DNA of 64,000 bases from Lentisphaerota bacterium (GCA_015061915.1 SUVR01000002.1:60670-124669), one strand, 5' to 3'; counted from the first letter of the stretch, positions 8,512 to 43,804 are shown. Program-made: numbers and translations. Notes: generated by a model from the letters alone, not told the origin.

Positions 8512-9633
8512 ATGACGGACGATCTCTGCGAACAGATGGCTTTTTCCTTCTTCAAGGAAATTGAGGTGGATAAAAAAACGCCTGCCATTGAACGGGATTT
8601 CGATACCGAAGAAGATGCTCTTTTTGCTCTGCTGGAGTCCAAAAATGACGAGCAACAACTGCCTCCGGAAGAAACACCTTCCGGAGAGCAGTTTTTTTCT
8701 GCCTCTGAAGAGGAGGAAACCGAAACTGAAATTGATGCAGCCGCCGATCAGATCATTGCAAATCTGGATGCTGAATTTGCCATCAACACCGCTACCGGAG
8801 ATTTCACACAGGAGATCGCCGATACCGTTGCTGAAGTCGAAGCAGAGGAAGAAGAAGCGATTGAAGAAACAGTCGTCACCATCCGGAGAAAAAATGCGTT
8901 TCCCGAATTGACGGAACAGCACCTCCGCCGGGCGGCACTTGGTTTTCTTGCCACGCTGAAACCGGAAAGCCTCGGTTTGAATTTTCCCTCCGGTATCGCA
9001 CGGATCAAAGTGGATGCCGGTGCCTATTTCTTCGGTCCCGGCAGAACCCCGGTCGTGGATCGTACCATTGCTGTTGTGACCTGTATTGATCGGAATAAAT
9101 GCTGGATCGATGCCTCCCTCAAAGCTGATCTCTTGGAAATGCTGACCAAAGCACAGGAAGAAAAGGCCGCTTTGGAAGAAGAACTGAAAGTCCGGGAGCC
9201 GGATCTGAAAGATGATTCCCTCTTCCCTGAAGCACAGATCTGGGATTTCAGCCGCGCAAGAAGCAGAAAATATAAATCCTGCCTCAAGAAGATCGAAAAG
9301 CTGGAATACTCCATCTACCACGGCAGCAAGTTTGAGCGTATGATGTTTGAACAGTTGGCAGATGAATTTTATCTGGTTGTTCCTGCCGGTCTCATCACCG
9401 CTGCAGAACTGCCCGAAGAATGGGGGCTGGTCTATGTGGCAGAGGATTTCTCAACAACCGTGATCCGGGAAGCAAAGAAATGCGAATGTCCGCAGGAAAA
9501 ACGGACCATTTTCGCCCTGCGCGCTGCTGCATCCGGGTACGGCGACCTGCTTTTTGCAAACGGTATTTCCATCACGAAAGATGGAACATCACGTTTCCAC
9601 CTGCCCCCGAAACGCCGCAAGGCATATTGCTGA
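8512..9633 (+). CDS. hypothetical protein with strongly acidic N-terminal half
   Basis: 373-aa ORF with an ATG start 39 nt after rpsA. Residues about 30-125 are D/E-rich. The C-terminal half is mixed alpha/beta. No family recognised with confidence. Confidence 0.55.
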   Translation: MTDDLCEQMAFSFFKEIEVDKKTPAIERDFDTEEDALFALLESKNDEQQLPPEETPSGEQFFSASEEEETETEIDAAADQIIANLDAEFAINTATGDFTQEIADTVAEVEAEEEEAIEETVVTIRRKNAFPELTEQHLRRAALGFLATLKPESLGLNFPSGIARIKVDAGAYFFGPGRTPVVDRTIAVVTCIDRNKCWIDASLKADLLEMLTKAQEEKAALEEELKVREPDLKDDSLFPEAQIWDFSRARSRKYKSCLKKIEKLEYSIYHGSKFERMMFEQLADEFYLVVPAGLITAAELPEEWGLVYVAEDFSTTVIREAKKCECPQEKRTIFALRAAASGYGDLLFANGISITKDGTSRFHLPPKRRKAYC

Positions 9634-10275
9634 TCAGTCAAACGAAACCGATTCCAGAAATCGCTCACCGAAAGCGTTAAGTTTATCGACTGCACTGCCC
9701 TTGCGTAACAGAAAATAATTCATATCAAACAGTTTTCCCGGATCATTCGGCATAAAAAACATATAGCCGCAGATCATCCATTCATCCCCTTTCGGACTTT
9801 TTCCGGTCAGACGGTATTCCACTGCAGGAATATCATCAAGGATCGTTGCAAAATTGATTGCAAACGATTCTGCATCCGGCGTATTGCGATATTTTCCCCG
9901 GCAGAAACCGGTCAGTGCAGACTGGTTACGCTCATTCGGCAGCAGCGCAGGGGGGATCACAGTTGACGATGCCATGGCATTCAGAACGCCCCCTTCCCAT
10001 ACCAGAGGATCAATACGCCAATCCGCATAATTTTTTGTATTCACCTGCACATAAACACGCAGCGGGTAAAGTCCGGAACGGGAGATCGTAAAACCATTGT
10101 AATGAACCGCAGAACGATTGGAAAGATCCAGATAATAGTTGCCACGCACATCGGCAATCAGCTCCTTTTGTGGTACTTCCGTGCCGGCTTCCGGAATCGT
10201 ATAGGCAGTTGAAAAACAACCTGTCAAAGTAAACATCAAAAAAGAGGAAAGAAAAAAGAAAGTCCCGGTTTTCAT
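9634..10275 (-). CDS. hypothetical lipoprotein
   Basis: The internal ATG at 10275 gives MKTGTFFFLSSFLMFTLTGC, a signal peptide with lipobox L-T-G-C. The longer track ORF (to 10371) adds an implausible N-terminus. No family recognised. Confidence 0.5.
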   Translation of the reverse strand: MKTGTFFFLSSFLMFTLTGCFSTAYTIPEAGTEVPQKELIADVRGNYYLDLSNRSAVHYNGFTISRSGLYPLRVYVQVNTKNYADWRIDPLVWEGGVLNAMASSTVIPPALLPNERNQSALTGFCRGKYRNTPDAESFAINFATILDDIPAVEYRLTGKSPKGDEWMICGYMFFMPNDPGKLFDMNYFLLRKGSAVDKLNAFGERFLESVSFD

Positions 10276-10375
10276 CTGCTGCATCTCCATCATTCGTTGA
10301 TCATTAGTGAAATATAGACGCAGAATCGTAAAAAACAAGTCGAAAAATAAAAATAAAGCAGATGAGAACAACCGT

Positions 10376-10507
10376 GCGGGACGTCAGACTACCGGAGCAA
10401 GGGGATCCTTGCTCCGGTGCTTTTTCTCCGGTGCGGCGGCAACTGCCGCACCGGAAAAAAAGCGGGCAGCGCAGGTTGCACCTGCGCTGCCCGGTCTGAC
10501 GTCCCGC
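10376..10507. repeat. closed three-hairpin palindromic intergenic element (copy 1), contains terminators
   Basis: Perfect 13-bp outer IR: 10376-10388 GCGGGACGTCAGA with 10495-10507 TCTGACGTCCCGC. It encloses three hairpins at 10391-10418, 10428-10454 and 10463-10493, separated by T5 and A7 tracts. The third hairpin plus the T-run on the minus strand is the terminator of the FrhB-like gene. Confidence 0.85.
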
Positions 10508-10520
10508 GTCAATCGGCGGA

Positions 10521-11753
10521 TCAGAAGTATTCTCTCAGGGGCATACCGCGGCGTTTACGCGCCTCGATCACCGGTCCGTTGCAGACCGGCTTACCCACAT
10601 TATGGATCTCGCAGAGGAATGCTTCGGCGTCTTCCGGGGTATCCTTCCAAAGCTTGACAGCCTTACCTTCGATAGCGGCATCAACGAACTGCTGACCGAT
10701 CTCACTGCGGACCACCACGGCGGAAACACCGTTCAGTGCAGCCTCAATACGGGGATCTGCTTTCTTCTGTTCGTCGGTATATTCATAGAGGAAGGAGGGA
10801 TGCAGCACCGGGTGATGCCAGGTATCGCCCACCACGATATCGCCGCAGCTGGCAACTTTTTCCAGACAGTAGCGACATTCTTCCGGCGTGAACTTGGCAA
10901 GCTGTCCCAGCAGGTTGTTCACGAACGGTGCAACGGCATCTTCGCCATTCTTCAGCTGCACCTTGAAGTCGCCGGGGAACGGGCGGGCGCGATAGGTCAC
11001 TTTACCAACATCTTCCAGTTTTGTTTTCAGACATTCGGTAATGAGCCATTCCGTACCGTGACGGGACCAGTGAGCGCCGCAGATATTACTGAGGACCAGC
11101 TTGATACGGCGTCCGAATTCTTCAAATTCGTTTCCCATCATCAATTTGCGGATCGCAATGGTATGGCAGGGAGTGGAAGTGATCGCCAGTTTTGTCAAAC
11201 CCTTGTCCAGCGCTTCCCGGAGACCGAGGAGCTGGGGATGGGGCTGATATTTGCTGCCGGCACCGGCAAGGACCTGTTCACGGGTCGTTGCGACAAATGC
11301 TTTTGCTTCGTAGGGGGTAGCGGGATCGAAGCCGGCGATCACGGCGCCATCGATCATCTTGTTTTCCAGAGCAAAGATCAGGAGTGCGGAGATAAAACCG
11401 CCGCTGACTGCTGCATTGTGGACTTCTTCATCCAGCGCATAGCCGGTATAGACATTGCGCCAGATCCCGGTGATGTCTTCTTTCGTACCTTTTTTTGCCG
11501 CTCTGCCGAAGAACTTTGTCTGGATCTCGGTCAGGGGAACTTTGTGTGCGGGGCAGACATTATGGCAGCGTTCGCAGTGTTCGTCGATACACTTGCCCAC
11601 CAGTTCCGGGTTGCGCCCCCAGGAATATTTTTTCAGTTCAATGGCATGACTCGGACACACCAGCTCGCAAGCACCACATTCCACACAGAGACCACTGTTG
11701 ATGCAGTTCTTCTTCAAGAGATCGAAACCTTCCTGCGACATTTTTTCCTCCAT
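10521..11753 (-). CDS. coenzyme F420 hydrogenase/dehydrogenase beta-subunit-like (FrhB family) iron-sulfur protein
   Basis: N-terminal 2x[4Fe-4S] ferredoxin motifs (CVECGACELVCP, CERCHNVCP) are followed by an FrhB/FdhB-like segment (AVSGGFISALLIFALENKMIDGAVIAG). Confidence 0.7.
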   Translation of the reverse strand: MEEKMSQEGFDLLKKNCINSGLCVECGACELVCPSHAIELKKYSWGRNPELVGKCIDEHCERCHNVCPAHKVPLTEIQTKFFGRAAKKGTKEDITGIWRNVYTGYALDEEVHNAAVSGGFISALLIFALENKMIDGAVIAGFDPATPYEAKAFVATTREQVLAGAGSKYQPHPQLLGLREALDKGLTKLAITSTPCHTIAIRKLMMGNEFEEFGRRIKLVLSNICGAHWSRHGTEWLITECLKTKLEDVGKVTYRARPFPGDFKVQLKNGEDAVAPFVNNLLGQLAKFTPEECRYCLEKVASCGDIVVGDTWHHPVLHPSFLYEYTDEQKKADPRIEAALNGVSAVVVRSEIGQQFVDAAIEGKAVKLWKDTPEDAEAFLCEIHNVGKPVCNGPVIEARKRRGMPLREYF

Positions 11754-30357: not shown

Positions 30358-30813
30358 ATGAAGTTCGGCAAAAAAATCCTTTTGGCTGCCATTCTGATGA
30401 CGATGGTTGGCTTCGAACTGTCCGCAATCGACAACATGAACACCCGCCCGGATGAACCCATGGGCTACGAAAACTACTGGAGCTGCATCAGCCGCAAGTT
30501 GGGTCGCGGTATCTGCAACACTGCTTTCGGTGCGATCGAAATTCCCCTCCAGATGGCAAAGACCTCTGCTGAAGAAGGCGGTTTTGCCGGTCTGACTGCC
30601 GGTACCCTCAAGGGCGTCGGCTACTGCATCGGCCGTGAAGTTGCCGGTATTGTTGATATCCTCACCTTCTTCATGCCGCTCCCGGGTCTGTCCAATGATC
30701 CCGAACACGGCGCCGGTTGGGGCTATGGTCCGTTCTTCACTCCCGAATGGATCCTCACTCCCTCCACCGATCCGTACAATGTGGCTTATCCCCAGACCGG
30801 TTACATCGACTGA
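30358..30813 (+). CDS. small secreted protein resembling the exosortase-system-associated TIGR04073 family
   Basis: 151 aa with a signal peptide. The pattern RKLGRGICNTAFGAIEIP...GTLKGVGYCIGREVAGIVDILTFFMPLP matches my recollection of TIGR04073 (KLGRG..N...G..EIP ... G..E..TF..P). Strong GGAG RBS. Confidence 0.5.
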   Translation: MKFGKKILLAAILMTMVGFELSAIDNMNTRPDEPMGYENYWSCISRKLGRGICNTAFGAIEIPLQMAKTSAEEGGFAGLTAGTLKGVGYCIGREVAGIVDILTFFMPLPGLSNDPEHGAGWGYGPFFTPEWILTPSTDPYNVAYPQTGYID

Positions 30814-30896: not shown

Positions 30897-31661
30897 TCAG
30901 CCGTTCTGCCGCTCCTGATATTCCTTTGTAAAAAACAGCGGTTCTTTCTGAAGCTGTGCATACACGCAATCTCCGGCAAGGCGGGCATCCAGAACGATCA
31001 CATGGGCATCGCAAAGTTTTCCTTCGCTTAATGCGCCGCAGGCACGAAAAGGTCCTTCCATCTTCGCATAGTAAATGCTGTGTGCGCCTTTGTGGCGGCG
31101 GGAAGGCACTTCGATCCGGTTGCCATCGTAATCAAAAACAATCAGATTTTCCGTTTCCTCTGTCAACATCCCCGGTACAGGGAGCCATTCTTCCACTCCA
31201 TGCAGATAAGTATTGCTGGCAATGGACGCACCGACAAACAGGATCTTGGCGCCACGGTCATACAATCTGCCCCAGGGGGAGTTACGGTGCGCCGGAGAAT
31301 CGAATTTTTCATGCCCGGCAAGGAACGCTTCCGCATCCGGTCCGGCGGCAGCGATCGAATGAGTGGGGTGCAGAGAACGGCGCACTCCGGGCATTTTACG
31401 GAACAATTCGGTCAATATACCCGTAGTGCTGGGCGTATCCCGTACAGAAAATACCGGTTGATGCGCATTGACAAGATCCCAGGAAAGCGTGGGGAACGCC
31501 ACCAGACCGGGTTCAAAGTAATCCAGCAGAGCGTACAGGAATCCTTCGCCCCTGCCCTCAACTTCGCCAAGAGATTTTACGGATGAATGGATCAGAACGG
31601 TATCGGTGGGTTTCAAGCCGAGAACCGCAAGATCCTCCTTTATACTTGCGCGCGTATGCAT
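30897..31661 (-). CDS. aminoglycoside N3-acetyltransferase (AAC(3)/Antibiotic_NAT) family protein
   Basis: The ATG at 31661 gives MHTRASIKEDLAVLGLKPTDTVLIHSSVKSLGEVEGRGEG...FPTLSW..., typical of the AAC(3) family. The longer track start (31721) lacks an RBS. Confidence 0.7.
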   Translation of the reverse strand: MHTRASIKEDLAVLGLKPTDTVLIHSSVKSLGEVEGRGEGFLYALLDYFEPGLVAFPTLSWDLVNAHQPVFSVRDTPSTTGILTELFRKMPGVRRSLHPTHSIAAAGPDAEAFLAGHEKFDSPAHRNSPWGRLYDRGAKILFVGASIASNTYLHGVEEWLPVPGMLTEETENLIVFDYDGNRIEVPSRRHKGAHSIYYAKMEGPFRACGALSEGKLCDAHVIVLDARLAGDCVYAQLQKEPLFFTKEYQERQNG

Positions 31662-31855
31662 GAGTAATATCCTTTTCGTTTCATAAAAATGATTGAGACT
31701 TTTTGACGGAAAAGATAGCACCCCGCGACCGCTTTGTCAAGTTGTTTTTTTATCTTTCGTGGCAGAAGTCCGGCAAAATAAAAGAGTAAAAGTTTTTTTC
31801 AAAAATTTTAAAAAAATCACTTGAAAAAATTTTTGATTTTTTTTACATTCTGCGG

Positions 31856-31884
31856 TTGACATACACACCATATTGTGTTACATT
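31856..31884 (+). promoter_or_regulatory. putative sigma70 promoter of nrdG-nrdD-trxB (TTGACA-N17-TACATT)
   Basis: TTGACA at 31856-31861 and TACATT at 31879-31884. The spacer is occupied by NrdR box 1. An AT-rich UP-like tract lies at 31790-31850. Confidence 0.55.
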
Positions 31885-31912
31885 AGACAAAGAGAAACAC
31901 AAGATATTGTGG
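31863..31912 (+). promoter_or_regulatory. two tandem NrdR boxes
   Basis: ACACACCATATTGTGT (31863-31878) and ACACAAGATATTGTGG (31897-31912) both match the palindromic NrdR-box pattern acaCwAtATaTwGtgt. Start-to-start spacing is 34 bp. They lie directly upstream of a ribonucleotide reductase operon. Confidence 0.75.
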
Positions 31913-31984: not shown

Positions 31985-32701
31985 ATGGAAACGAAAAATT
32001 TGAAATACGGATTGCAGAAAATGACGCTTCTGGACTTCCCCGGAAGAGTCGCCTGCACGGTGTTTTCCAGCGGATGCAACTTCCGCTGCCCCTTCTGCCA
32101 CAACGCAGGTCTTGTTCTGCCGGAAGCGGACCGTTCCATGTTGATGGATCAGGCGGAAGTTCTCGCATTCCTCCGCAAACGGCAGGGGCTGCTGGATGGC
32201 GTGTGTCTGACAGGCGGCGAACCGCTGCTCTTTGAAGAAAATCTGCACTTCATGCGTGAAATCAAAGCGCTGGGTTACGAAGTCAAACTGGATACCAACG
32301 GTGCTTTTCCGGAACGGTTGAAACAGGCAGTGGCGGAAGGTTTGGCTGACTATGTGGCAATGGATATCAAAAACGCCCCGGAAGCCTACGCAGAAACGGC
32401 AGGACTCCGGGTGGATCCGGAGCGGATCAGAGAAAGTGTTGCATTCCTGCTCTCCGGTACGGTCCCGTATGAATTCCGCACCACAGTGGTGTTGCCGTTC
32501 CATACAGCAGAACGGATGGACGCAATCGGGCAGTGGATCGCCGGGGCAGAAAAGTATTTCCTTCAGCAATACAAGGACCGGGATGTGGATCTGCTGGGCG
32601 ATCCGGCAACCATGTCACCCGCAGAAAAAGCACAGCTGGAAAACTTCCTGGCGATCGTGCGGAAATATGTTCCGGCAGCAGAACTGCGCGGCATCGAATG
32701 A
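31985..32701 (+). CDS. nrdG: anaerobic ribonucleoside-triphosphate reductase activating protein (radical SAM)
   Basis: Radical-SAM cluster motif SSGCNFRCPFCHN and GVCLTGGEPL. Adjacent to nrdD. ATG at 31985; the track start at 31976 is a GTG. Confidence 0.9.
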   Translation: METKNLKYGLQKMTLLDFPGRVACTVFSSGCNFRCPFCHNAGLVLPEADRSMLMDQAEVLAFLRKRQGLLDGVCLTGGEPLLFEENLHFMREIKALGYEVKLDTNGAFPERLKQAVAEGLADYVAMDIKNAPEAYAETAGLRVDPERIRESVAFLLSGTVPYEFRTTVVLPFHTAERMDAIGQWIAGAEKYFLQQYKDRDVDLLGDPATMSPAEKAQLENFLAIVRKYVPAAELRGIE

Positions 32702-32767: not shown

Positions 32768-35173
32768 ATGTATCAGGTACAGAAGCGTGACGGGAAAGTG
32801 GTGGACTTCAACATCAGCAAGATCGCAAGTGCGATCCGGCTGGCATTTGATGCCCAGGACAAGCAGAGCCATCCCTCAGTGATCGATTTTCTTGCACTGA
32901 AGGTTACGGCAGATTTTGAATCCAAGATCAAGGAAGGTCTGATTTCTGTGGAAGACATCCAGGACAGCGTGGAAGCGGTTCTGGTTCAGGGCGGTTATGC
33001 GGACGTTGCCAAGGCGTACATCATCTACCGCCGTCAGCACGAACAGCTGCGTAATGTGAAAAGCTCCATTCTCGACTACAAGAAGACGGTGGATGACTAC
33101 ATCAAGATCAATGACTGGCGCGTGAAAGAAAACTCCACGGTCACCTACTCTGTGGGCGGTCTGATCCTCTCCAACTCCGGTGCCATCACTGCCAACTACT
33201 GGCTGAGCGAAGGCTACGATGAAGAAATCGCCAACGCACACTACAATGCAGACATTCACCTGCATGACCTTTCCATGCTCACCGGTTACTGCGCCGGCTG
33301 GTCTCTGAAGCAGCTGATCCAGGTCGGTCTCGGCGGCGTCGGCGGCAAGATCACTTCCAAGCCCGCAAAGCACCTGGCGACCCTCTGCAACCAGATGGTC
33401 AACTTCCTCGGCATCATGCAGAATGAATGGGCGGGCGCACAGGCATTCTCCTCCTTTGATACCTATCTTGCTCCGTTCGTGAAGGCGGATAATCTGAGCT
33501 ATGAACAGGTCAAGAAGTGCATTGAATCCTTCATCTTCGGCGTGAACACGCCCTCCCGCTGGGGTACGCAGGCTCCCTTCTCCAACATTACGCTGGACTG
33601 GACTGTTCCCAACGACCTGGCGGAACTCAACGCCATTGTCGGCGGCAAGGAAATGCCTTTCAAGTACAAAGACTGCAAGAAGGAAATGGATATGGTCAAC
33701 CGCGCGTTCATCGAAACGATGATCGAAGGCGACGCCAACGGCCGCGGTTTCCAGTACCCGATCCCGACTTACAGCATCACCCGCGACTTCGACTGGTCCG
33801 AAACGGATAACAACAAACTGCTGTTTGAAATGACTTCCAAGTACGGTACGCCCTACTTCTCCAACTACATCAACAGCGACATGGAACCCAGCGACGTCCG
33901 CAGTATGTGCTGCCGTCTGCGCCTCGACCTGCGCGAACTCCGCAAGAAATCCGGCGGTTTCTTCGGCAGCGGTGAAAGCACCGGGTCCATCGGCGTTGTG
34001 ACGATCAATATGCCCCGTATCGGCTACCTGGCGACCAACAAGGAAAACTTCTATGAACGCCTGGATCACCTGATGGACATTGCGGCGCGCTCCCTCAAGA
34101 TCAAGCGTACCATCATCACCAAGCTGCTGGATGGCGGTCTCTATCCCTACACCAAGCACTATCTGGGATCCTTCGACAACCACTTCTCCACCATCGGTCT
34201 GGTCGGCATGAACGAAACCTGCCTGAACGCCAACTGGGTGGGCTGCGATCTGACGCACAAGGAAGCACAGGAATTCACGCAGGAAGTGCTGAACCATATG
34301 CGGGAACGCCTCTCCGATTATCAGGAAAAATACGGCGACCTGTACAACCTGGAAGCCACGCCCGCAGAATCCACGGCGTTCCGTCTGGCGAAGCACGACA
34401 AGAAGCGTTTTGCAGACATCATCACCGCCGGTGCCGATGGCGAAGCACCGTATTACACGAACAGCAGCCACCTGCCCGTCAGCTACACGGAAGACATCTT
34501 CACGGCTCTGGATATTCAGGATGACCTGCAGACCCTCTACACCTCCGGTACCGTGTTCCACGCCTTCCTGGGAGAAAAAATGCCGGATTGGAAGAGCGCT
34601 GCAACTCTCGTCCGCAAGATCGCAGAAAACTACAAACTGCCGTACTACACCCTCTCCCCGACCTATGCCGTCTGCAAGAACCACGGCTACATTGCCGGTG
34701 AAAAGTGGACCTGCCCCAAGTGCGGCGAACGCACGGAAGTTTACAGCCGTATCACCGGTTACTACCGCCCGGTCCAGAACTGGAACGACGGTAAGTCTCA
34801 GGAATTCCGCGAACGCAAGACCTACGACCAGAAGATCGCTCTGACCAAGGAACCGGAATGCAAGAAACTGGATCCGGTGGTCTCTGTGACCGATCCCGCC
34901 GTGGAAGCAGTCGCAGAAACCAAGCAGGGCAACGGCGATCCGGCACTGCTGCTCTTCACCACCAAGACCTGCCCCAACTGCAAACTGGCAAAACACTTCC
35001 TGGATAAAGCCGGCATTGAATACAAAGTGATGCTGGCGGAAGAATCCATGGATCTGGTCAACAAGCTGGGGATCAAGCAGACCCCGACGCTGGTGATCCA
35101 GGATGGCGACAGCGCTGACAAGATCGTGAACCTCTCCAACATCCGCAAGTTCACGGAAGAAAGCGTTGGCTGA
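32768..35173 (+). CDS. nrdD: anaerobic ribonucleoside-triphosphate reductase (class III) with C-terminal glutaredoxin-like domain fusion
   Basis: N-terminal ATP-cone, a Zn-ribbon CKNHGY...CPKCG and the glycyl-radical motif SRITGYYRPV. About 100 extra C-terminal residues end in a thioredoxin-fold segment, LLLFTTKTCPNCKLAKHFLDKAGIEYKVM...TPTLVI (nt 34943-35170). Confidence 0.95.
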   Translation: MYQVQKRDGKVVDFNISKIASAIRLAFDAQDKQSHPSVIDFLALKVTADFESKIKEGLISVEDIQDSVEAVLVQGGYADVAKAYIIYRRQHEQLRNVKSSILDYKKTVDDYIKINDWRVKENSTVTYSVGGLILSNSGAITANYWLSEGYDEEIANAHYNADIHLHDLSMLTGYCAGWSLKQLIQVGLGGVGGKITSKPAKHLATLCNQMVNFLGIMQNEWAGAQAFSSFDTYLAPFVKADNLSYEQVKKCIESFIFGVNTPSRWGTQAPFSNITLDWTVPNDLAELNAIVGGKEMPFKYKDCKKEMDMVNRAFIETMIEGDANGRGFQYPIPTYSITRDFDWSETDNNKLLFEMTSKYGTPYFSNYINSDMEPSDVRSMCCRLRLDLRELRKKSGGFFGSGESTGSIGVVTINMPRIGYLATNKENFYERLDHLMDIAARSLKIKRTIITKLLDGGLYPYTKHYLGSFDNHFSTIGLVGMNETCLNANWVGCDLTHKEAQEFTQEVLNHMRERLSDYQEKYGDLYNLEATPAESTAFRLAKHDKKRFADIITAGADGEAPYYTNSSHLPVSYTEDIFTALDIQDDLQTLYTSGTVFHAFLGEKMPDWKSAATLVRKIAENYKLPYYTLSPTYAVCKNHGYIAGEKWTCPKCGERTEVYSRITGYYRPVQNWNDGKSQEFRERKTYDQKIALTKEPECKKLDPVVSVTDPAVEAVAETKQGNGDPALLLFTTKTCPNCKLAKHFLDKAGIEYKVMLAEESMDLVNKLGIKQTPTLVIQDGDSADKIVNLSNIRKFTEESVG

Positions 35174-35175
35174 TC

Positions 35176-36111
35176 GTGGAAACCGGTATGACGGACTATG
35201 ATATCATCATCGCCGGTGCCGGTCCTGCCGGGCTGACAGCGGCGATCTATGCGCGGCGCGCCGGTAAATCCGTTCTCGTGCTGGAAAAAGCCGCTTTCGG
35301 CGGGCAGATCACACACTCGCCGAAAGTGGAGAACTATCCCGGTTTTCCCGTCATCAGCGGAAATGAGCTGGCGGAAAAATTGATGGATCAGGCTCTTGCC
35401 CTCGGTGCAGAAGTGGATGTGGATACAGTTATCGATGTGGTGGATCTGGGCGAATGGAAAAGCGTGATCACGGAAAGCAAGGAATACATTTGCAGTGCCG
35501 TGATCATCGCCTCCGGTTCCAAACACCGCACACTCGGTCTACCCAACGAGGAAGAACTGACCGGAAACGGCGTCTCCTACTGCGTGCTGTGCGATGGTGC
35601 GTTTTTTGCCGGGCGTGAAGTCGCTGTGATCGGCGGCGGCAACTCCGCTCTTCAGGAAGCGGTGCTGCTTTCCGAGACCTGCAGCAAAGTCACTGTAATC
35701 CAGAATCTCGGATTTCTGACCGGAGAAGAAAGCCTGATCAAAAATCTTCAGGCACGGCAGAACGTCCATTTCATCTTCAACACCATTGTAACGGGGTTGA
35801 ACGGGAAGGATGAACTGACCAGTCTGACGCTGAAAAATACGGAAAGCAATACGGAATCCGATTTTGCCGTAAACGGCATTTTCGTTGCCATCGGTCAGGT
35901 TCCGGAGAACAAGCCCTTTGCCGGGGTTTGCGATATTGACGAACGGGGCTATATCGTGGCAAATGAAACTTGCTGCACCCGCACTGCCGGTGTGTTTGTG
36001 GCAGGCGACTGCCGCACGAAAGGCATCCGTCAGATCACAACAGCAACCGGTGATGGTGCCAGCGCCGCACTTGCAGCCTGCAAGTATATCGAAGATACGC
36101 GCGTGCTGTAA
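35176..36111 (+). CDS. trxB: thioredoxin-disulfide reductase
   Basis: FAD motif DIIIAGAGPAGLTAAIYARRAG, redox-active CVLCDG and NADPH motif VAVIGGGNSALQEA. The start is either the GTG at 35176 (2 nt after the nrdD stop) or the ATG at 35188. Confidence 0.85.
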   Translation: METGMTDYDIIIAGAGPAGLTAAIYARRAGKSVLVLEKAAFGGQITHSPKVENYPGFPVISGNELAEKLMDQALALGAEVDVDTVIDVVDLGEWKSVITESKEYICSAVIIASGSKHRTLGLPNEEELTGNGVSYCVLCDGAFFAGREVAVIGGGNSALQEAVLLSETCSKVTVIQNLGFLTGEESLIKNLQARQNVHFIFNTIVTGLNGKDELTSLTLKNTESNTESDFAVNGIFVAIGQVPENKPFAGVCDIDERGYIVANETCCTRTAGVFVAGDCRTKGIRQITTATGDGASAALAACKYIEDTRVL

Positions 36112-36136: not shown

Positions 36137-36176
36137 GGGCTTGCTCCGCAAACTGCGGGGCAAGCCCGATTTTTTT
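36137..36176 (+). terminator. intrinsic terminator of the nrd-trxB operon
   Basis: GGGCTTGCTCCGCA-aac-TGCGGGGCAAGCCC (14-bp stem, 1 mismatch) followed by GATTTTTTT. Confidence 0.8.
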
Positions 36177-36218
36177 GAAATCGCAGACACTCCTGCAAAA
36201 CAGAACGGTATCCGGAAT

Positions 36219-40679: not shown

Positions 40680-41609
40680 ATGAAAATCGCAGCAGCAACC
40701 GACTACATCGGCAGCACCGGCTGTCCGGAACGCCCCCTCCGTCTCCTCGCTGAAGCAGGATTCACCCATCTTCACTGGTGCCATCAGTGGTGTACCGATT
40801 TTCTCTACAGCCAGCATGAAATCAATGCATACAAGAAAATGCTCAAAAATTTCGGTTTGACCCTGCTGGACATTCACGGCAGTCAGGGGCAGGAGAAATG
40901 CTGGTACTCCGAACTGGAATATCAGCGCAAAGCGGGCGTGGAACTGGTCATCAACCGCATCGAGATGATGACCGAACTGGAAGCCGAAGAAGGCGGCGCT
41001 CTTATGATGCACTTCCCCGTGTTCCATGCGTGGGATAAAGATAACGCCGAAGTTTTGGCGGCAACCCGAAGGAAACTGGATATCTTCAAGCGCACACTGG
41101 ATGATCTTCTGCCGGTCCTCGATATGCACGGAAGAAAGATCGCGCTCGAAAATATGTGGGGCGACAACTGGGATGCCATGGATGAAATTCTTGCCGAATA
41201 TCCGGCACAGTACATCGGGATCTGCTACGACTCCGGTCACGCAAACAGCAAATCCGTCGGCGGCAAGCCCTTCGATATGGGCTACTGCCAAATGGACCGT
41301 CTGGAAAAGCAGAAAGACCGTCTGGAAGCGTTGCATCTGCACGATAACAACGGCGACGGCGACCAGCATCAGCCCCCGTTCTACGGCAATGTGGACTGGG
41401 AACGGCTGGCAAAGATCATCGCCACCAGTAAATCCTACACCCGTCCTGTCAGTTTTGAAATGACCATCAGCAATACGCCGTTCCTGGATAAAGAGCGTCA
41501 GGAAAAAGGTGAACCGCAGACCGATAAAGCCGTTCTCGCATTCCTCAAGGATGCTCACGAACGGTGCGAAAAATTCGGCAGAATGGTCGAAGCGGCGGAG
41601 GCAAAATGA
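40680..41609 (+). CDS. sugar phosphate isomerase/epimerase (xylose isomerase-like TIM barrel)
   Basis: 309 aa. Typical metal-ligand context (IALENMWG, YDSGHAN, LHLHDNNGDGDQHQPP). Confidence 0.7.
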   Translation: MKIAAATDYIGSTGCPERPLRLLAEAGFTHLHWCHQWCTDFLYSQHEINAYKKMLKNFGLTLLDIHGSQGQEKCWYSELEYQRKAGVELVINRIEMMTELEAEEGGALMMHFPVFHAWDKDNAEVLAATRRKLDIFKRTLDDLLPVLDMHGRKIALENMWGDNWDAMDEILAEYPAQYIGICYDSGHANSKSVGGKPFDMGYCQMDRLEKQKDRLEALHLHDNNGDGDQHQPPFYGNVDWERLAKIIATSKSYTRPVSFEMTISNTPFLDKERQEKGEPQTDKAVLAFLKDAHERCEKFGRMVEAAEAK

Positions 41610-43804
41610 ACCGGGTCAGCAACTCCTGGAAACTGGAAGGCTCCACCGTCCTCACGGACAACGGGACCTTCCTGATGGATGGCGCGGGCTCTGCCGTTAC
41701 CACATTGAAACTGGATCAGCCCCAAGCTATGCCCGTCCGGATCAGCTGCGAAAGCCGCGCAGTCGATGCCATCGGAAACAATGCTTACGAATACTCCGTT
41801 CTGGCGAAAGTCGTCTTTACCGACGGAACCACCAACCGTCTGGACTGGACGCCCTTCAATGACGGAACGCTGTTCTATGCGGACTACGCTCCCTTTCTCA
41901 AGGGCAGTCACGACTGGCAGAAACGCAGTTTTCTCCTGATCTACGAAAAACCGATCCGGGATGTGCAGCTGGAAGTGCTGTTCACCCGTCATACCGGCAG
42001 CGCCGAGTTCCGGGATCTGACCGTGGAAGACTTTGCAAAGGATCCGGCGGTTCCGCGCTTCGATACCTTCACCATCGCCGGGGACCTGCCGCAGGGAGCT
42101 TTCCTCCGGGATTGCCGGACCGGCAGTTTCGCAGTGGATGGCGTCCGTATGGAACTGAAGGAGGAAAACGGTACGATCCACGCCCATCTGGAGCTGGGAG
42201 ATCAGGCGGATCGCTGTTTCACATTCTACTGGACGAAAGAGATTGCCGCCGATGCCGTCTCTTTCCTGCCCGCAATGGATGAGGAAACAGAGACTGCAAA
42301 CACGCCCAAAGACTATTTTCAGGTCTGCACCTGGCGGGTCGGGGCAAATGGTCTCGCCTCCAAAGCACCGTTCGCCGCCGTCAGCACGGGCGATGCAGTG
42401 GGGTTCGTTCCCCGGTGTCCGGTCTTCGGACGGGTGGGATACAACTCCATTTTCAAGCGTCTGTATGTGGCGTTCGATGTAGCACTGACCGCCGAACGCC
42501 CGTATGCCGATCTGACTTTTGTTTCTTATCGTTTTGAGCCGGAACACGGCTACCGCAGCGCTCTCTGCACTTATTACGGTCTGTTCCCCGAATTTTACAA
42601 GACGCGGATCCGGGAACAGGGGCTGTGGATGCCGTTCGCCAGTATCAAAAATCTGCCTGATCCGGAAGATTTTCACTTCAAGTTCAAAGAAGGGCACGGG
42701 GTCGGCGACTACGAGTGGGAACTGGAACACGGGATCCATACCTTCGCCTACACCGAACCCATGACCCAATGGATCGATATGCCCGCAGATGTGCCGCGGA
42801 CATACGAAAACGCCAAAATGTGGCGCCGGGAAAAGATCAGTTCCGAACAGGCAAAGGTCATTGATGATTCCGTTATGACCGACGAGACCGGCAAAGAGAT
42901 TATGCTCGCCACCGAACTGCCCTGGTGTCACGGCGTAGTGTGGAGCGTCAACTCCATGCCCGGATACGGCGATATGGAATGGAAACAAAAGACGATTCCC
43001 GCAGGTTTTCACGAATATATCGACAGCGCAGAAGGTTATGTGACGGCAGATATTTCACACCGCCGCGACCACTTTTCACGCTGTCCGCTGGCTCTGACCT
43101 TCAGCGCCGATTCCTTTGTGCCCGGTATCTGGAAGGGATATATCGCTTACGAATACGCCCGGGAACCCCATGACCGGCTCCTGCCCCAGGGCAGATATGT
43201 CATGGCGAACGGCACACCCGGCAGTATGTGGTTCCTGCCCGCAATGCTGGATGTTGCCGGCACCGAAACGGACTGGAACATCGGCGGCAGCTGGAGCCCC
43301 ATGACCGTACAGGAACTGCGGTACCGTCGCGCTGCTTGCGCCGATAAGCCGTACTGCTTCCTCATGAACTCCGACTTTTCAAAATTCACCCACGAAATGG
43401 TGGAAAAATATATGAAACGGTCCCTCGTGTTCGGCATGTTCCCCGGCTTCTTCAGCGCAAACGCCGCCAGCGGTCATTATTTCGCCAATCCCTCCCTCTA
43501 TGAACGGGACAGAGATCTGTTCAAACGGTATCTCCCCTTCATCCAGCAGGCAACCGCCGAAGGCTGGGAACCGGTGACATACGCCAAAGCCGACGATCCG
43601 GCGATCGCACTGGAACGGTACGGCACAAAGTATGTTACCGCCCTGAACGATTCCGGCGAAACAAGAACAGTCCGGCTGACATTCGATGATAAACTGGACG
43701 TCACCGGCTTTACCGATGTGCTGACCGGAAAAACATACCGCAAGGATGAACCCATTACGCTGGATGGCGAAGATGTGGCAATGCTGGAGCTGATCAAGGC
43801 GTAA
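41606..43804 (+). CDS. large cytoplasmic hypothetical protein (732 aa), possibly carbohydrate-active
   Basis: The ATG at 41606 overlaps the upstream stop (ATGA). There is an N-terminal beta-sandwich-like region and no signal peptide. No family recognised. The functional hint comes only from context (TIM-barrel isomerase upstream, cupin convergent). Confidence 0.55.
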   Translation: MNRVSNSWKLEGSTVLTDNGTFLMDGAGSAVTTLKLDQPQAMPVRISCESRAVDAIGNNAYEYSVLAKVVFTDGTTNRLDWTPFNDGTLFYADYAPFLKGSHDWQKRSFLLIYEKPIRDVQLEVLFTRHTGSAEFRDLTVEDFAKDPAVPRFDTFTIAGDLPQGAFLRDCRTGSFAVDGVRMELKEENGTIHAHLELGDQADRCFTFYWTKEIAADAVSFLPAMDEETETANTPKDYFQVCTWRVGANGLASKAPFAAVSTGDAVGFVPRCPVFGRVGYNSIFKRLYVAFDVALTAERPYADLTFVSYRFEPEHGYRSALCTYYGLFPEFYKTRIREQGLWMPFASIKNLPDPEDFHFKFKEGHGVGDYEWELEHGIHTFAYTEPMTQWIDMPADVPRTYENAKMWRREKISSEQAKVIDDSVMTDETGKEIMLATELPWCHGVVWSVNSMPGYGDMEWKQKTIPAGFHEYIDSAEGYVTADISHRRDHFSRCPLALTFSADSFVPGIWKGYIAYEYAREPHDRLLPQGRYVMANGTPGSMWFLPAMLDVAGTETDWNIGGSWSPMTVQELRYRRAACADKPYCFLMNSDFSKFTHEMVEKYMKRSLVFGMFPGFFSANAASGHYFANPSLYERDRDLFKRYLPFIQQATAEGWEPVTYAKADDPAIALERYGTKYVTALNDSGETRTVRLTFDDKLDVTGFTDVLTGKTYRKDEPITLDGEDVAMLELIKA

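Follow-up and report, generated by a model that had tools for sequence, protein, structure and literature searches.

Only a few class III ribonucleotide reductases (RNRs) have a firmly established electron donor for the anaerobic synthesis of DNA precursors. In the scheme as outlined in PMC9176816, NrdD1 enzymes are supplied by formate, NrdD2 enzymes by thioredoxin (Trx) together with thioredoxin reductase (TrxR), and NrdD3 enzymes by an NrdH-like protein encoded in their operon. The thioredoxin dependence of NrdD2 is credited to Wei et al. 2014 in the summaries given by PMC9669993, PMC4493059 and PMC9176816, and the operon-encoded NrdH-like redoxin of NrdD3 to Wei et al. 2015 as cited in PMC9176816 and PMC5704485. 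The largest group of enzymes with a double Cys in the finger loop, the one reading MCCR, was left ambiguous: as far as the subtype account of Burnim et al. goes, it makes up 83% of the double-Cys enzymes and is equipped for either reductant (PMC9669993). As for a redoxin covalently joined to an RNR, the glutaredoxin (Grx) fused to NrdB of Facklamia ignava was shown to act as the reductant of its RNR, and the supplement of the same work lists one 'Glutaredoxin:NrdD' RefSeq protein (Lachnospiraceae bacterium TWA4) without comment or analysis (PMC6187632). Here, we describe a stretch of 64,000 nucleotides (nt) from a gut Lentisphaerota bacterium (GCA_015061915.1, SUVR01000002.1:60670-124669), referred to as the window, in which an MCCR-type class III RNR carries a glutaredoxin/NrdH-like domain at its C-terminus. 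The fusion gene, nrdD::redoxin (32768..35173, + strand, as are all operon features below; ATG start, TGA stop, 801 aa), stands second in a compact three-gene operon with the order nrdG - nrdD::redoxin - TrxR-like.

The 801-aa protein is built from four parts, namely an ATP-cone (residues 3-92, 32774..33043; PF03477, 78.6 bits), the NrdD catalytic core with its glycyl-radical domain (residues 121-686, 33128..34825), a linker of some 37 disordered residues and a glutaredoxin/NrdH-like domain of 75 residues. The scores exceeded the cut-offs of all three class III RNR family models, with 634 bits for PF13597 (cut-off 26.2), 511 bits for TIGR02487 (326) and 1124 bits for NF006126 (548), and the relatives of the core in the PDB were 8p23, 4coi and 4u3e. 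The NCBIfam model NF006126 (684 positions) aligns to residues 1-688 and stops there, so that the last 113 residues constitute an addition to a standard NrdD. An earlier note on this DNA, drawn from the sequence alone, had put the extension at about 100 residues beyond the glycyl-radical motif, and the strings it quoted (SRITGYYRPV, SMCCRL, ALLLFTTKTCPNCK at 34943 and CPNC) were all found where it had placed them. The hallmarks of class III are complete: besides the finger-loop Cys and an nrdG gene adjoining upstream, the protein has the glycyl-radical motif SRITGYYRPV (residues 660-669, 34745..34774) with an invariant Gly664 (34757-34759) and a Zn-ribbon.

When residues 689-801 were modelled with AlphaFold2 (AF2) from a 35-sequence alignment, residues 727-800 adopted a beta-alpha-beta-alpha-beta-beta-alpha order with a predicted local distance difference test (pLDDT) score of about 94, and a Foldseek search with this model returned thioredoxin-superfamily structures at a probability of 1.0, which bears out the thioredoxin fold proposed for the tail. 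The redoxin domain proper (residues 726-801, 34943..35170) begins with ALLLFTTKTCPNCK. Pfam recognized residues 720-781 as Thioredoxin_2 (PF13098, 30.3 bits against a cut-off of 27) and Glutaredoxin (PF00462, 27.9 against 22.9), and the closest solved sequences were the NrdH-redoxins 4fiw (E = 1.8e-5) and 1r7h. The earlier assignment to the NrdH/YruB type was right as to these nearest relatives but not as to membership in either family. With 25.7 bits, the tail stays below the NrdH cut-off (TIGR02194, 85.75), reads CPNC and not CVQC, and lacks the WSGFRP motif; its best NCBIfam match is the YruB family (TIGR02196), but at 26.8 bits the score falls below the cut-off of 88.55. Judged by these comparisons, the tail is a Grx/NrdH-like redoxin outside both curated families.

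Conservation was followed across 81 fusion proteins. The redox motif C735-P-N-C738 (34970..34981), which sits just before the helix at positions 48-60 of the AF2 tail model, is invariant in the 35-sequence alignment and occurs as CP[NK]C in all 81. Pro773 (35084..35086), placed in a Q-T/A-P-T-L context, would correspond to the cis-proline of the thioredoxin fold. Per-position conservation amounts to 90-100% in the catalytic core, 14% in the linker and about 55% over the tail as a whole, where C-P-[NK]-C, P773-T774-L775 and the core hydrophobics are invariant; by this measure the tail is under purifying selection at the CPxC and cis-Pro positions. The linker (residues 689-725, 34832..34942) has a pLDDT below 50 in both AF2 models, varies between 19 and 47 residues among the 81 proteins and is rich in A, E, K, S and P, with a majority-residue conservation of 0.14. 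A conserved tail behind an unconserved, disordered linker is what a functional, flexibly tethered redox domain is expected to show.

Some variation of linker and tail was seen within the family. A pair of Cys (CxxC, CxC or CC) occurs in the linker of 27 of the 81 fused NrdDs, while 40 have no linker Cys and the window protein has a single one, C698 (34859-34861). Where present, these pairs resemble the shuttle Cys pairs in the C-terminal tails of class I and II RNRs, without being universal. One 309-aa fragment (P0122) contains two copies of the redoxin domain, with DACDGTRILGTAKAEPRP repeats between and before them, and represents a tandem-tail variant unless it is an assembly artefact. Two further fused NrdDs contain inteins and retain the C-terminal redoxin tail: in P0270 (599 aa) the intein lies exactly between both finger-loop Cys (SMC, PMHK...THN, CRL), and P0241 (1314 aa) has two insertions, one of them with an HNH-like region.

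The distribution was counted on the best 120 protein clusters and on the best 80 of at least 598 species genomes (one genome per species) with a close NrdD relative. The fusion is no rare curiosity and occurs widely, in Clostridia of the gut, in Lentisphaeria and on phage contigs. The 120 clusters are 78-100% identical to the window protein and 784-840 aa long, nearly all with a precomputed Glutaredoxin match. In all 80 genomes the alignment reaches residue ~776-801, hence all are fused, and they cover Lentisphaeria/Victivallaceae as well as many families of Clostridia, among them that of Pseudoflavonifractor phocaeensis, an isolate. At 64 of the 80 loci, a gene for a TrxR homologue with 43-63% identity follows just downstream on the same strand; as three of the 16 others are truncated contigs, this corresponds to 64 of 77 informative cellular loci. 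The gaps between nrdD and the TrxR gene mostly range from -20 to +150 nt, and nrdG is located immediately upstream in about 60 loci.

The same module also exists in pieces. In three independent metagenome contigs (L087-L089), the NrdD core is 76% identical to that of the window and ends at a true stop just past the glycyl-radical domain. Next come, after a gap of 27 nt, a gene for a 72-aa redoxin with 57% identity to the tail and, after another 3 nt, a TrxR gene. In a fourth contig (L084), a redoxin gene is followed by a TrxR gene after 8 nt. These cases came from a search for free-standing tails over representatives of 50%-identity clusters, in which the matches were mostly short proteins. 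Other apparently free-standing redoxins were discarded as fragments or miscalls of fusions on tiny contigs, since the frame continues upstream (P0135/L082), is interrupted by Ns (L085) or is shifted (L086).

Viral contigs in IMG/VR hold 36 fused and 18 unfused genes of this family, all with CCR and Glu where readable, and two of these loci are flanked by phage primase and exonucleases. A TrxR gene within 3 kb was found in none of the 54 viral loci open to analysis, be they fused (36) or tail-less (18). Among deposited phage genomes, the fused end was found in only one, an unannotated faecal metagenomic phage. As the viral fusions have no TrxR nearby, it is the redoxin and not the reductase that travels with NrdD as the RNR-specific part, and such a travelling redoxin fits an RNR-specific electron carrier that could be recharged by a host reductase. 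Many phage-borne fused NrdDs (L101-L114, L134, L147) align only from residue ~82-106 onwards; they keep the tail and lack the ATP-cone, and with it the dATP/ATP activity switch.

Within the window, the first gene of the operon is nrdG (31985..32701), a radical-SAM activase of the NrdG2 type (TIGR02495, 198 bits with a cut-off of 131; Radical_SAM, Fer4_12), in agreement with the upstream nrdG described before. Its start is more likely ATG 31985, as in the public gene call and an exact NCBI match, with GTG 31976 as a possible alternative. A sigma-70-like promoter is predicted at 31856..31884 (TTGACA-17-TACATT with a TG-extended -10, matching the consensus at 10 of 12 positions). Two NrdR-box-like sites with two mismatches each accompany it, one between the -35 and -10 elements (ACACACCATATTGTGT, 31863..31878) and one just past the -10 (ACACAAGATATTGTGG, 31897..31912). 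They are the only matches to the NrdR-box consensus with up to three mismatches in the whole 64 kb, where 0.18 would be expected by chance, and they speak for the NrdR-controlled operon that had been suspected. Their spacing is 34 nt from start to start with an 18-bp linker, compared with 15-16 bp (31-32 nt start-to-start) for the canonical arrangement as described in PMC13584703, and the few clear box pairs of related loci are 32-33 nt apart. Of 79 related loci, about half have similar boxes in the 350 bp before the cassette, while their density elsewhere is 0.07 per kb. At the other end, an intrinsic terminator is predicted 26 nt past the reductase gene (36137..36177; 14-bp stem with 10 G-C pairs and a T-run), and no comparable terminator was found between the three genes. 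Promoter, NrdR boxes and terminator, all of them predicted, thus bound one operon.

The third gene (35188..36111) encodes a TrxR-like flavoprotein disulfide reductase of 307 aa. The earlier note had it start 2 nt after the nrdD stop, which corresponds to GTG 35176; however, ATG 35188 is the likelier start, as it is used by the public gene call and by the exact NCBI match MBE6407301.1 (labelled by PGAP only as 'FAD-dependent oxidoreductase') and homologues begin with M-x-x-YD, so that the gap becomes 14 nt. The identification as trxB was sustained in its motifs, with redox-active CVLC (35581..35592; C[AV][VL]C is kept in 62 orthologues), the dinucleotide-binding GxGxxA as GGGNSA (35632..35649) and the FAD-binding GxGxxG as GAGPAG, but the TIGR01292 cut-off is narrowly missed (328.2 against 343.45 bits; Pyr_redox_2, 150 bits). 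Furthermore, the NADPH 2'-phosphate motif HRRxxxR is replaced by QNLGFLTGE (35701..35727), which renders the proposed use of NADPH doubtful. Among 62 syntenic orthologues, 54 have QNL..T and eight have HRR..R, a mixture that suggests switches of cofactor specificity inside the family. The best PDB matches are low-Mr TrxRs, of which the top ones, 7aaw and 4gcm, carry HRR and 7jyp carries QNL; a literature search on 7JYP yielded nothing relevant.

With regards to the electron donor of this reductase, published criteria assign proteins with missing GxGxxA/HRRxxxR motifs to the non-NTR group (PMC10880999). The thioredoxin reductase (TR) of T. maritima prefers NADH, and HRR is missing in NADH-preferring TRs (T. 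maritima, D. vulgaris TR3) as well as in NAD(P)H-independent TRs (PMC5627308). An identity as FFTR is a less favored possibility, because GxGxxA is intact and the similarity to the FFTR structures is weaker (124 and 120 bits for 6gna and 6gnd, 266 bits for NADPH-type TrxR). Since HRR is lost, the dinucleotide motif is intact and the similarity to FFTR is much weaker, our best guess is that NADH would be a likelier donor than NADPH.

For the subtype of the RNR itself, the active-site columns were read from a phmmer alignment to T. maritima NrdD (4coi/4u3e), whose positions 328-331 and 495 serve as reference columns in the subtype account of Burnim et al. (PMC9669993). Cys175, the bottom-face Cys of beta-A in GYCAGW (33290..33292), aligns to T. 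maritima Cys125. The finger loop M380-C381-C382-R383 within SMCCRL (33905..33916) aligns to SCCR 328-331, and Glu529, the putative proton donor in NLEATPAE (34352..34354), aligns to E495 in NIE495QVPAE. None of these residues, nor Gly664, varies across the 81 fusion sequences. The adjacent finger-loop Cys pointed out before thus fall on the double Cys of T. maritima (C329-C330), and the protein combines the double Cys and beta-A Cys of NrdD2 with its Glu (T. maritima E495 / N. bacilliformis E438 column). The signature of NrdD1, a single-Cys MGCR loop and no active-site Glu, is absent, as the loop reads MCCR and Glu529 is in place; the NrdD of P. copri, an enzyme of the formate type, shows MGCR and a Leu in the Glu column. 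Nor does the protein show the signature of NrdD3, which is QCCR/A with neither Met nor Glu, as Met380 and Glu529 are both present. The claim of a thiol- rather than formate-dependent subtype was therefore sustained with regard to Cys175, the double Cys and Glu529, but not in its exclusion of formate: the residues favor thiol chemistry, yet are compatible with formate use, because Met380 is kept in the MCCR loop.

We consider it likely, with some reserve, that the locus encodes a self-contained redoxin-dependent class III RNR module whose turnover is sustained by the tethered redoxin. NrdG would install the glycyl radical on Gly664, and a thiyl radical on a finger-loop Cys (C381 or C382) would then start nucleotide reduction. 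The two reducing equivalents would come from Cys175 and the finger-loop Cys pair, with Glu529 donating a proton, so that each turnover would leave an active-site disulfide. This disulfide would be re-reduced by the C-terminal NrdH-like domain through C735-P-N-C738, which the disordered linker of about 37 residues would keep at high local concentration, and the co-transcribed TrxR-like flavoenzyme would recycle the redoxin domain, probably from NADH rather than NADPH. NrdR would repress the whole unit. The evidence for this mechanism (anatomy, tail fold, residue conservation, synteny, split and fused forms, phage portability) is consistent and wholly comparative. From it we infer an electron path from the reductase via the tail to the active site, with NADH as donor and thiols, not formate, carrying turnover. 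A natural fusion of NrdD and redoxin together with a co-transcribed reductase offers direct genomic evidence, not drawn from the residues of the active site, for thiol-based reduction in the MCCR group.

Several points weigh against this mechanism. The absence of a finger-loop Met, by which Burnim et al. delimit the 'solely thioredoxin' clades, does not apply here, as Met380 is invariant, and its counterpart forms a thiosulfuranyl radical in the formate-dependent NrdD of E. coli. The full-length AF2 model (35-sequence alignment) has a mean pLDDT of 58, too poor to judge whether the tail reaches the active site. An adjacent TrxR is missing at 13 of the 77 cellular loci, and the tail is not obligatory, being absent from 18 close relatives on viral contigs and from the 684 positions of the NF006126 model. 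Against NADH as donor of the reductase, a loss of HRR is also seen in NAD(P)H-independent TRs (PMC5627308), and the literature searched yielded no biochemistry for the window protein or any MCCR-class enzyme.

The retained Met lends some weight to the best of the alternatives, a dual-mode enzyme in which formate, acting with Cys175 and Met380, would be a competent or even the main reductant and the redoxin/TrxR pair an alternative when formate is scarce. Met380 is indeed invariant beside the double Cys and the Glu, and we grant this possibility a modest probability. However, in the metagenome-assembled genome (MAG) of one member of the Clostridia (L077), the gene for a fused MCCR enzyme with Glu is followed by a second, unfused NrdD of 720 aa (8583-10745) with VMGCRS, Tyr in the Glu column, no tail and no TrxR, which has its own E. 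coli-type NrdG at ~10758-11309. Formate-type and redoxin-type enzymes, as classified from these residues, are side by side in this genome, which suggests a division of labor. In addition, neither pyruvate formate-lyase nor formate dehydrogenase was found among the ORFs tested in the window, although 64 kb are a small sample of the genome.

Rather improbable, in our estimate, is a role in maintenance or activation, in which the redoxin would keep the Cys of the Zn-ribbon and glycyl-radical domain reduced for NrdG, for example after contact with oxygen, and would not act in each turnover. The tail is attached directly behind this domain, which is the attraction of the proposal. The Zn-ribbon ligands C636-x2-H639 and C649-x2-C652 (34673..34723) lie at the position of the Zn site of class III RNRs (PMC5704485), with invariant Cys; the family has C-x2-H ... 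C-x2-C instead of four Cys, and His639 is at least 90% conserved. Yet a maintenance role leaves unexplained why the tail is paired with the site of double Cys and Glu and not with the MGCR paralogue, and a covalent redoxin in a 1:1 ratio with a co-transcribed reductase seems excessive for occasional repair.

The match of the tail to the YruB family brings to mind a general thiol or peroxide defence module that would shield the oxygen-sensitive NrdD and pass no electrons to nucleotide reduction; TrxR-like/Grx-like pairs serve peroxiredoxins in Clostridia (Cp34/Cp9). There is no peroxiredoxin in the operon, though, and the covalent fusion to NrdD together with phages that carry the fusion alone argue for an RNR-specific job, so that we regard such a module as very improbable. 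Finally, two genes joined by a missed stop, which the earlier note had named as what would overturn the fusion, or by a frameshift, an artefact to which the split forms and the frameshifts of some contigs (L086) might point, have next to no chance of being the correct reading: the frame is uninterrupted in the window and conserved in hundreds of sequences, the tail is kept across independent assemblies (120 clusters and 80 of the 80 best genomes), and an identical 801-aa protein exists in public databases.

Beyond the tethered-redoxin mechanism for this locus, a more general proposal can be put forward tentatively, and we hold it to be the less probable part of our interpretation. The MCCR class might in general depend on a redoxin and not on formate, with the fusion as a mobile plug-in whose tail would enter the active site directly, aided in a third of the proteins by shuttling over the linker Cys pair. 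The cellular driver might then be a TrxR subfamily of its own, linked to NADH (or independent of NAD(P)H), while phages would spread the fusion and couple it to the reductases of their hosts.

The operon is surrounded by ordinary genes of the chromosome of a diderm bacterium that degrades glycans, with LpxA, rhamnosidase, fucosidase, FGE-sulfatase, GyrA, HtpG, Pta and a hybrid-cluster protein, and proteins of the window have identical counterparts among NCBI proteins from MAGs labelled Lentisphaeria or Lentisphaerota bacterium. Neither an nrdR gene nor a second thioredoxin system was found among the ORFs tested in the window, a small part of the genome. Upstream of the operon lie a 151-aa open reading frame (ORF) without a Pfam match and with an apparent N-terminal hydrophobic segment (30358-30813, +) and, just before the operon, a divergent gene of the Antibiotic_NAT (aminoglycoside N-acetyltransferase) family (30897-31721, -). 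Further downstream, an ORF of 732-746 aa (41564-43804, +) is among the public gene calls and has no Pfam match.

Compared with known systems, the window protein shares with NrdD2 of N. bacilliformis and T. maritima the double-Cys finger loop, the beta-A Cys and the Glu in the E495 column, as well as the expected route of reduction, through a protein dithiol that a TrxR-type flavoenzyme restores. However, the characterized NrdD2 enzymes have SCCR without Met and no fused redoxin, depend on housekeeping Trx/TrxR/NADPH and are only about 30% identical in the core, whereas the window combines MCCR with a covalent Grx/NrdH-type redoxin and an operon-encoded reductase without the NADPH 2'-phosphate motif. 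In the logic of the cassette, NrdD3 of Methanosarcina barkeri comes nearest, with nrdD and nrdG encoded together with a small dedicated Grx-like redoxin and a reductase for it. There, the finger loop is QCCR/A without Met and Glu and the redoxin is a separate protein, in contrast to MCCR with Glu and a fused redoxin in the window. The NrdD3 reductase is reportedly a [4Fe-4S] ferredoxin:disulfide reductase and not a flavoprotein.

The Grx::ATP-cone::NrdB protein of F. ignava likewise has a Grx-fold domain covalently fused to an RNR subunit, but it belongs to class I, the domain is N-terminal on the radical-generating subunit, and the system is glutathione (GSH)-dependent with no dedicated reductase gene. 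Nearest to the tail among solved sequences are the class Ib NrdH-redoxins (4fiw, 1r7h), small Grx-fold redoxins dedicated to RNR, which are reduced by TrxR rather than glutathione. These are free-standing with CVQC and WSGFRP, whereas the tail is fused and has CPNC without WSGFRP. The reductase, in turn, resembles the non-NADPH low-Mr TRs (T. maritima TR, D. vulgaris TR3 and TRi, clostridial FFTR) in its TrxR fold, its CxxC and the missing HRRxxxR (PMC5627308, PMC10880999). It has the QNL replacement in common with the Thermotogae-type structure 7jyp, while FFTR lacks the GxGxxA that is intact here and D. vulgaris TRi has TQ/NGK in place of QNL (PMC5627308).

For the comparison of reductants, the single polypeptide offers a convenient system. 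The module bears on the cofactor specificity of a TrxR subfamily and, through its abundance in gut Clostridia, Lentisphaeria and phages, on the supply of deoxyribonucleoside triphosphates (dNTPs) in dominant gut anaerobes and their viruses. The literature searched, which did not extend to Wei et al. 2014 and 2015, contained no description of the fused NrdD/TrxR cassette, its spread in gut bacteria and phages or the QNL-type reductase. Redoxin-dependent class III RNRs and a class I Grx fusion are thus known already, to which the present locus adds an NrdD-redoxin/TrxR cassette that is essentially undescribed and widespread.

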